Below, in pieces: positions 5,730 through 6,034 of a stretch of DNA of 10,626 nucleotides. Both the position numbers and the translations under genes were made by a program. The notes under the pieces are model-generated. The model did no database searches and had not been told where the DNA came from. It saw only the letters and a program-made list of their open reading frames with translations. Positions within the stretch are counted from its first letter, which is position 1. Each line of letters opens with the position of its first letter. This DNA is from a virus (taxonomy: Duplodnaviria; Heunggongvirae; Uroviricota; Caudoviricetes), in the IMG/VR virus record IMGVR_UViG_2529292985_000036. One strand, 5' to 3'.

Positions 5730-6034
5730 TTTATTCACAGGTGAGGTAGAGTGCGTGCGCCGGACACGGATAAGAATCCGGCACTGACAGTTTACTGAAA
5801 AGGATATATCCCTGAAAAGTCAGGGCATAACACGAAAGCGCCCGGAGAAGTTAGTCTCTCTGTATAGGTCGTCGTTAAATTTAATTCGATCGTGCGCTTC
5901 CGGTTGTGGCAATCCGCGAAATGGCGCGGCGGTAAGTATGGCGGGGTTATTCCTTCCCCCGCTGAGGACACCGGGTTGTCAGGTTGACCATACGCTTAAG
6001 TGACAACCCCGCTGCAACGCCCTCTGTTATCAAT

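Follow-up and report, generated by a model that had tools for sequence, protein, structure and literature searches.

The DicF small RNA (sRNA) of the Qin prophage is made in Escherichia coli K-12 as species of 190 and 53 nt (Ragunathan et al. 2023, PMC10448788, confirming Faubladier 1990), visualised on blots with a DicF probe (PMC10448788). Formation of the 190-nt species is dependent on RNase III, whose cut in the dicBp transcript falls between nt 813 and 814; the 53-nt species is dependent on RNase E, and the 190-nt form builds up in rne-ts cells. Both terminated and read-through transcripts are found in K-12 (PMC10448788). In this literature the 5' 130 nt of the longer RNA were treated as an unstructured extension. 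We analysed the homologous locus in a 10,626-nt stretch of viral DNA (IMG/VR record IMGVR_UViG_2529292985_000036; hereafter the window), a lambdoid prophage with 100% identity to E. coli DA33137, and in particular the 305-nt interval (5730-6034) between a 128-aa open reading frame (ORF) and DicF. This interval makes up the structured leader of the DicF precursor, in the leftward (dicB) operon, an early and repressor-controlled operon of this prophage, and its 3' part together with DicF constitutes the 190-nt RNA. The already known pre-DicF has at its 5' end a 116-nt domain, termed X, whose fold is a pseudoknotted four-way junction. The reading ranked first, and held tentatively, is that X is a portable cis-acting pre-sRNA domain that serves the precursor and its processing. 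The untranslated region, the 190-nt species and both RNase steps were already known. In contrast, the pseudoknotted, covarying junction, its sharing with phages P1 and P7 and with several genera, its association with exchangeable, non-DicF seeds, and the competition between its closing stem and an upstream helix were found neither in Rfam nor in the literature searched, that on the 190-nt DicF included.

The identity of the locus is clear from its homology. The interval shows 89% mean column identity to the ydfC-dicF untranslated region of K-12 Qin and is near-identical to it from 5890 on. DicF itself (53 nt, 6035-6087, + strand) has the same sequence as K-12 dicF, matches Rfam RF00039 over 6036-6087 with 76.7 bits, and carries its own intrinsic terminator with a U-tract to about 6092. 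Homologs of the interval occur in 4315 of 5426 complete E. coli genomes, at up to 8 places per genome, and the interval is unannotated in all but one of 30 sampled E. coli genome records.

Domain X (5903..6018, + strand) is supported by the minimum free energy (MFE) fold, by covariation and by the model R1, which scores it at 147.8 bits in the window; the same fold is the MFE structure of the isolated domain and of the 190-nt RNA. Stem P1 (5903-5910/6011-6018) closes the domain and encloses three arms on the + strand: P2 (5914-5918/5925-5929); P3, consisting of a 3-bp base, P3a (5931-5933/5970-5972), an internal loop and a variable upper stem, P3b (5941-5946/5957-5962); and P4 (5973-5981/6001-6009), with a 19-nt loop, GGUUGACCAUACGCUUAAG (5982..6000). 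The pseudoknot joins GUAUG in the P3 internal loop (5936..5940) to CAUAC in the P4 loop (5989-5993). A spacer (6019..6034) separates X from DicF and ends at the RNase E site, 6034/6035 (AAU/UUUC, the slash marking the cut), the DicF 5' end being taken from the K-12 annotation and the alignment. Two other pairings were considered and rejected: a pseudoknot between the P3 loop and GAGGA, which would leave a sterically implausible connecting loop of 1 nt and whose GAGGA is missing from many variants, and a put-like mini-hairpin, GUC-AGGUU-GAC, which is broken in phage P1, whereas P4 covaries. A tRNA identity was likewise rejected, since ARAGORN found no tRNA genes in the window; X is cloverleaf-like in topology only. 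The Rfam/Infernal scan proposed in the original prediction was run, and no Rfam family was found for the interval: Rfam 15 covariance models gave no match to window positions 5650-6034 at E values up to 10, nor any to X of the phage P1, cdtI and pPE4 leaders.

Comparative support for the fold is strong. In alignment A2 (plain MAFFT, 31 distinct sequences) 92% of the cells are paired, against 33-54% when the partners are slid; 13 of 33 pairs are compensatory and 0 of 500 shuffles are as good. Alignment A4 (64 distinct sequences), which was fitted to R1 and is therefore biased towards the modelled helices, has 96.1% of cells paired against 30-55% slid, with compensatory changes at 19 of 36 pairs and, again, 0 of 500 shuffles as good. 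The pseudoknot is absent from R1, and 99.7% of its cells pair. A U-A pair within it is replaced by C-G in the phage P1 lineage and, independently, in one lambdoid copy (L255), such that phage P7 (GUAUGG/CCAUAC) and phage P1 (GCAUGG/CCAUGC) differ exactly at a pseudoknot pair. The sequence of P3b is nearly free and yet always pairs (GCGGGG/CCCCGC, CUGGG/CCCAG, CAGGUG/CACCUG, CCCGGG/CCCGGG, CAGGG/CCCUG), and multi-base swaps are found in P4 of Izhakiella (GGGUAACCA/UGGUUACCC) and of locus L249 (GGAUCACCA/UGGUGAUCC). The many G-U pairs place this signal on the + strand RNA, and no conserved ORF can run through X, because the length changes in P3 are not multiples of three. The P4 loop is conserved in the BLAST-derived members (phages P1, P7, F1055 and pPE4); these are the independent evidence for loop invariance, since scans of the sequence collections required GGTAAGNATGG or GCGGTAAG plus (C)AGGTTGACCAT and the invariance of those bases is partly by construction.

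The covariation bears directly on whether the hairpins in the interval are incidental, that is, remnants of decayed coding sequence, or chance stems in a GC-rich spacer that holds an unannotated small ORF. The original prediction had listed four hairpins, all of which were found in the sequence with small coordinate offsets: GCCGGA/TCCGGC (Ha), which lies at 5759-5764/5777-5782 rather than at about 5763..5786; CCCTGA-AAAG-TCAGGG (Hb) at 5810-5815/5820-5825; GCGGGG/CCCCGC at 5941-5946/5957-5962; and the 9-bp stem GGGTTGTCA/TGACAACCC at 5973-5981/6001-6009, ending 26 nt before the DicF 5' end (6035). Only the third and fourth passed the covariation analysis, and they did so as arms P3b and P4 of the larger fold. 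Ha (5759..5782, + strand) is present in the MFE fold and is invariant in 59 distinct E. coli-type homologs, and so holds no covariation information. Hb (5810..5825, + strand) keeps its inner 4 bp, its two outer pairs being unpaired in 33 of the 59 homologs. The interval proved to be moderately rather than markedly GC-rich (0.47-0.56, against 0.33-0.49 in the flanks). Its folding energy by itself is weak evidence of structure, since it lies about 2.4 standard deviations below shuffles on both strands alike (z-scores of -2.4 on the + and -2.5 on the - strand), a symmetry that would suit incidental stems. Long antisense stop-free frames, of up to 101 aa in many homologs, and hypothetical proteins annotated here in some phage records also speak for coding sequence. 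However, the antisense frame shifts from homolog to homolog, and the longest, of 101 aa in one homolog, had no match in Pfam or PHROG. Window ORFs of 30-59 aa that overlap the interval are intact in only 4 of 47, 5 of 31 and 15 of 36 distinct homolog variants, so that the absence of any plausible ORF, as first noted from the sequence, held in the sense that none is conserved among homologs. A 20-aa stretch of the + strand translation of the leader (window 5806-5870) does match phrog_8854, a family of 59 positions and of no known function; the ATG that starts the matching ORF is present only in the subset of homologs reading GGATATGTCCC, and the window has ATA. The phrog_8854 family may thus have been built on spurious ORF calls over noncoding RNA. 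With local ORFs not preserved, antisense frames shifting and no family match, a hidden ORF was ruled out. Against incidental stems stand also the compensatory changes and G-U pairs specific to the + strand, the P3 length changes, and the conservation of X across lambdoid phages, phages P1 and P7 and several genera. This explanation is largely refuted for 5903-6018 and very improbable overall, though possible for parts of 5730-5825.

The distribution of X is much wider than that of DicF. In BLAST searches of phage genomes 5903-6026, and especially 5914-6011, was conserved far beyond Qin-type prophages, with members in cdtI, Stx2c phages, 2H10, Ayreon, Salmonella phage F1055, pPE4 (labelled as an Actinobacillus phage), P7 and P1. 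Pattern scans of viral, genome and metagenome collections, which missed more divergent relatives, added Citrobacter, Trabulsiella, Erwinia tracheiphila, Izhakiella, Serratia symbiotica and many gut-metagenome copies. X is present in 66 phage records, against 22 for DicF proper, and R1 detects it in a single copy at each locus. The cdtI region runs from the cI terminator through a near-consensus PL, a 285-nt leader, X, the sRNA with terminator and a long hairpin to the first ORF; in the phage isolate HannyBb, which has a Q-like protein, X precedes exo, xis and int. In phages P1 and P7 the -10 box of the C1-controlled Pban lies about 45 nt before the start of X, and the transcript start about 35 nt from it, so that here too X is near a 5' end; a 5'-terminal hairpin precedes it, and its 3' part overlaps the feature annotated as 'dicF-like region' in P1.

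Several records at the edges of this distribution deserve mention. In the P1-like phage D6 (L191 1185-1290) a weak R1 match of 14.8 bits shares with X only the closing stem and its flanks (GUUGCGGUAAU ... CCCCCGCUGCAAC) and has other internal hairpins; it lies in a 750-nt noncoding leader before the same terminator as in phage P1, and may be a divergent relative of X. Four metagenome-assembled genome records (L170, L171, L174 and L178, labelled Bacillota, Veillonella parvula, Proteobacteria and Collinsella) carry X near-identical to that of E. coli, of E. coli type or of P1 type, which is probably bin contamination. The early region of pPE4 is enterobacterial-looking despite its label (DicA, YdaT, Kil, exonuclease VIII). 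A 98.6% identical DicF near the end of the record of the 254-kb jumbo Aeromonas phage AP1 (MT713136.1, 249911-249981) is unexpected for that host and suggests a chimeric assembly or contamination.

What follows X is exchangeable. An intrinsic terminator lies 44-126 nt after X in all 13 downstream sequence classes (140 loci), usually with a base GGCGG...CCGCC(C)UUUUU and with varying seed and loop sequences; DicF proper is one of these classes only, and Rfam did not recognise the sRNAs after X in cdtI and pPE4 as DicF. Because X is more widespread than DicF, the downstream sRNAs differ and the terminator is constant, the conserved unit, as judged from these comparisons, consists of X, an exchangeable seed and a terminator. 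In pPE4 a non-DicF sRNA and terminator unit stands in tandem duplicate (L006 ~4100-4190 and 4191-4281), including the last bases of X (CCCCGCCACAAC). An AgvB identity for the C/A-rich sRNA found after X at some loci was rejected, since AgvB maps to the moron site after PR' (PMC4104026).

Upstream of X the 5' half of the interval (5730-5900) is lineage-specific, and what is mainly conserved in it is Hc, a long-range, imperfect helix of about 14-20 bp and the proposed RNase III substrate. In the window the 5' strand of Hc (5826..5841) and its 3' strand (5894..5908), both on the + strand, are joined in the MFE fold by the pairs 5826-5831/5903-5908, 5833-5834/5901-5902 and 5836-5841/5894-5899. They enclose a variable insert (5842..5893, + strand) with small window-specific hairpins, Hd and He, whose pairs are not conserved in homologs; across lineages the enclosed insert is about 32 to 134 nt long. 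Within the E. coli-type leader neither strand of Hc varies. At the same site, helices of 18-20 bp and of other sequence are present in K-12, in cdtI-type leaders (CAACGAUGAGGGCA/UGCUCUCAGCGUUG), in F1055, Erwinia and Izhakiella (CACAACGAUGAGAGCA/UGCUCUCUUCGUUGUG), in Trabulsiella, and in loci L037, L249 and L238, with only 0-2 of 200 shuffles as good. The 3' strand of Hc overlaps the 5' strand of stem P1 of X, and Hc always uses the GUUGUG strand of that stem; since both helices draw on this strand, Hc and stem P1 are mutually exclusive. Recombination breakpoints occur at several points of the leader. Within the insert of the Hc-type helix of Salmonella phage F1055 (L007 3915-3925) a perfect tRNA T-arm-like stretch, GGTTCGATTCC, is found, possibly derived from a tRNA or left over from an att site. 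At many loci a UGCUCU motif directly precedes X; it was considered as a boxA and rejected, as it is the 3' strand of Hc.

The RNase III cut mapped in K-12 falls within this helix. The K-12 dicB promoter (TTGACC-17-TAATCT, at 1403-1431 of the K-12 locus L002) implies a start near L002 1438, a position inferred from the promoter and good to a few nt. From this start the cut at 813/814 corresponds to L002 2250/2251 and, through the window/K-12 alignment, to 5901/5902 in the window; counting 190 nt back from the DicF U-tail gives the same position. The mapped 5' end of the 190-nt DicF thus lies about 1 nt before stem P1 (5903), inside the 3' strand of Hc. The interval is contiguous with DicF on the same strand, is homologous to the K-12 leader and has double-stranded RNA for RNase III at the place where the 5' end maps, as a DicF precursor should. 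It is probable that the RNase III determinant is Hc, which spans the inferred cut, the cut itself being mapped in K-12 only. The original prediction had stated that DicF is cut out of the operon transcript by RNases, which agrees with the published RNase III and RNase E steps (PMC10448788), and had proposed its four hairpins as possible processing determinants. The idea of processing stands, and is partly published, but the probable RNase III determinant is Hc in place of the listed hairpins: the third and fourth are arms of the pseudoknotted domain X rather than processing sites as such, and the first and second have no comparative support.

A second duplex was observed downstream of DicF. 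A perfect 14-bp duplex (6097-6110/6231-6244; UGAAUUUUGUGAUG/CAUCACAAAAUUCA) closes the STnc100-like element between DicF and dicB, and the 3' end of the published 72-nt DicF (6035+71 = 6106) lies within it; because of this position the duplex is probably a downstream RNase III site.

We propose the following course of events for the first-ranked reading, of X as a pre-sRNA processing domain. In the operon transcript the bases just 5' of X, together with the GUUGUG strand, would pair with a segment about 50 nt upstream to form Hc, an imperfect duplex that measures about 14 bp in the window and 18-20 bp in the other lineages. RNase III would cut Hc at about 5901/5902, whereupon the freed strand would close stem P1 and X would become a compact pseudoknotted junction at the very 5' end of the 190-nt pre-DicF. 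RNase E would then cut 17 nt 3' of X, at 6034/6035, and free the 53-nt DicF. By giving the precursor a structured, recessed 5' end, X might protect it from 5'-initiated attack, keep the sRNA in its pro-form and set the entry point of RNase E, and phages would join X to interchangeable seed-plus-terminator cassettes. We infer the refolding from Hc to stem P1 and the protective and processing role of X. In favour of this reading, the interval is homologous to the K-12 leader, the 5' end of the 190-nt RNA maps 1 nt before stem P1 and both RNase steps are published; seven or more lineages have an Hc, with compensating sequence; and X covaries strongly, is the MFE structure of the 190-nt RNA, is always followed by a terminator with variable seed sequence, exceeds DicF in distribution and lies near a 5' end in phages P1 and P7 as well.

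Several points weigh against this reading. Hc of the window is weaker than those of other lineages (-21.1 kcal/mol, 43 of 200 shuffles as good), and phages P1 and P7 have no transcribed Hc partner and a poor stem P1. In the predicted fold of the 190-nt RNA the RNase E site lies in the loop of a hairpin (6025-6032/6039-6046) over the DicF 5' seed, and this modelled hairpin appears weak and has no demonstrated covariation. Plasmid-expressed 53-nt DicF alone is functional (credited to Balasubramanian 2016), so that DicF can act without X. For protection of an RNA a plain hairpin at the 5' end would suffice, and the combination of a pseudoknotted junction and near-invariant loops in X hints rather at a specific partner. 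Finally, transcription of the downstream genes has to get past the terminator that directly follows every X; in phage P1 this terminator is strong and lies 2.6 kb ahead of ban. Functional DicF without X, the resemblance of X to a binding surface and its constant position before a terminator keep two other models alive, one in which X acts on transcription elongation and one in which it is a sensor.

The precedent for the former is the put RNA of phage HK022, which binds the beta-prime zinc-binding domain of RNA polymerase and suppresses termination. If X acted likewise, the nascent RNA would bind the polymerase or otherwise suppress termination, with read-through of the sRNA terminator, and thereby allow expression of the downstream early genes, namely dicB/kil, exo, xis and int in lambdoids and tRNAs and ban in phage P1. 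There are real likenesses: both are structured phage RNAs of N-less early operons, placed after a repressor-controlled promoter and before terminators, with no phage protein partner. X always stands downstream of an early promoter under repressor control and ahead of the first intrinsic terminator, which in phage P1 is a strong one (7-bp GC stem, UUCG loop, U7) about 180 nt after Pban, with ban 2.6 kb further on. No N gene is annotated in the early-left operons of the X-bearing records examined (those of the window's strain, cdtI, mEp460 and HannyBb). Near-invariant loops would suit the binding of a conserved host machine, and terminated as well as read-through transcripts are seen in K-12. 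In sequence and fold, however, X is not put. The put sites, of about 70 nt, form two stem-loops with a G-G bifurcation, whereas X, of about 116 nt, forms a four-way junction with a pseudoknot; HK022 has two copies, putL and putR, whereas X occurs once per phage. Homology to put was rejected, as R1 found nothing in the HK022 immunity region (loci L004 and L005) and by eye only short words such as GCGCGGCGG and CAGGNUGA are common. Moreover, the 5' strand of stem P1 would be held in Hc during transcription of X, and partial read-through of sRNA terminators needs no special factor. On balance a put-like action of X is unlikely.

Lambda nut sites, the other early-operon precedent, fit less well. 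Hb is superficially boxB-like, as it starts like boxB (CCCUGAAAA), and the position in an early-left operon is similar, but its outer pairs are unconserved and its tetraloop sits on a longer stem. No boxA (YGCUCUUWA, up to 1 mismatch) was found in 5730-6034, and the 3 in the whole window compare with a chance mean of 7.8. With no boxA in the interval and no N-family gene among the operon ORFs (DUF1391, phrog_6937, DicB, DUF1482, exonuclease, DUF4224 and integrase), a nut site was ruled out.

Alternatively, X could be a sensor, either a riboswitch-like aptamer or a site for a host protein, whose occupancy would choose between termination and processing, giving the sRNA, and read-through into toxic genes. 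Its conserved fold is aptamer-like, with a closing stem, a multi-helix junction, a pseudoknot and conserved unpaired nucleotides; it lies directly upstream of a terminator, and its closing stem has an alternative in Hc. Such a switch would, however, call for mutually exclusive pairing between X and the terminator, and none that is conserved was seen by inspection, Hc competing with stem P1 on the 5' side; the terminator is 44-126 nt off, with variable sequence between. One candidate, the pairing of GGCGGUA of X with the 3' arm of the terminator as an antiterminator, was rejected as too distant and absent in phage P1. No Rfam riboswitch matched at E values up to 10, and there is no association with metabolic genes. 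A sensor therefore appears quite improbable. A broader proposal takes in both polymerase modification and gating: X would be a new class of cis-acting elongation-control RNA which, through put-like modification of the polymerase or ligand- or protein-gated read-through, carries transcription past the embedded sRNA terminator in N-less temperate coliphages and so determines how much sRNA is made relative to the toxic and recombination genes downstream, both in lambdoid early-left operons and in the ban operon of phage P1. We regard this as rather doubtful.

A further explanation, to which we give a similarly low probability as to the sensor, is that X is itself a stable trans-acting RNA, of about 133 nt after the RNase III and RNase E cuts, which would sequester a host factor as a decoy or sponge, or use a CU-rich P3 loop on Shine-Dalgarno (SD) sequences. 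Consistent with this are a distribution broader than that of any single downstream sRNA, a compact self-contained fold, and the P3 loop (5947-5956), which is pyrimidine-rich in all variants examined and anti-SD-like in most (UUCCUU, CUCC; UCC core). The 7-mer UGAGGAC is common to X (5963-5969, on the 3' side of the internal loop) and to the SD region at the dicB ribosome-binding site (6249-6255), which could be chance or could reflect a translational link between X and dicB. Against a role in trans, the shared 7-mer may be fortuitous and is missing from many X variants, phage P1 has no closely following ORF, and no such RNA has been reported, although the published blots showing the DicF species were made with a DicF probe.

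As a processing domain, too, X differs from the nearest described precursors. The sRNAs that RNase E releases from 3'-untranslated regions and operons (for example MicL, CpxQ and SroC) likewise show an AU-rich cut beside structured RNA and a 3' end at an intrinsic terminator. Their precursors are simple stem-loops, whereas here there is a large, conserved, tertiary-structured domain, a prior RNase III step and a module common to unrelated phages. A sub-threshold match to STnc100/PasD (RF02076; 38.4 bits) is present in the window at 6099-6239, on the other side of DicF from X. Like X, this element is multi-hairpin and stem-closed, and its first 30 nt are akin to those of X (G(A/U)UGUGG, AAU, 5-bp hairpin), but X gave no score against the STnc100 model at E values up to 10, has another number of arms and has a pseudoknot. 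In the element (6106-6137) GAUGUGGU is followed by GAAU and a 5-bp hairpin, in X (5903-5932) GUUGUGGC by AAU and likewise a 5-bp hairpin, and the two elements that flank DicF may have a common ancestry.

The remaining genes of the window are arranged as follows. A DicA-like repressor comes first, followed by DUF1391 (ydfA-like, 5191-5343), the 128-aa ORF (5343-5729; phrog_6937, function unknown, without a Pfam match), the interval and DicF; after the STnc100-like element come dicB (6262-6450), DUF1482, an exonuclease and an integrase. The 128-aa ORF takes the place of K-12 ydfB and ydfC. Homology to K-12 restarts right after its stop, which shows a module exchange at the boundary between ORF and leader. 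The integrase, beside a tRNA-Ser, is annotated in RefSeq as frameshifted in DA33137 (L001 9735-10785; window ~9464-10514), and for this reason the prophage may be defective.

Few bacterial sRNAs have been known for as long as DicF, and most E. coli genomes carry copies of this region. The analysis defines a portable cassette of leader, sRNA and terminator, and with it a concrete target for mutation. A role of X in processing or stability would explain the build-up of the 190-nt RNA and the timing with which phages release a toxic sRNA. If X governs read-through, it would add a second kind of phage antiterminator RNA to the one known, and would answer how N-less lambdoids and the phage P1 ban operon pass an early terminator. 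Either way, X is a candidate for a new Rfam RNA family.

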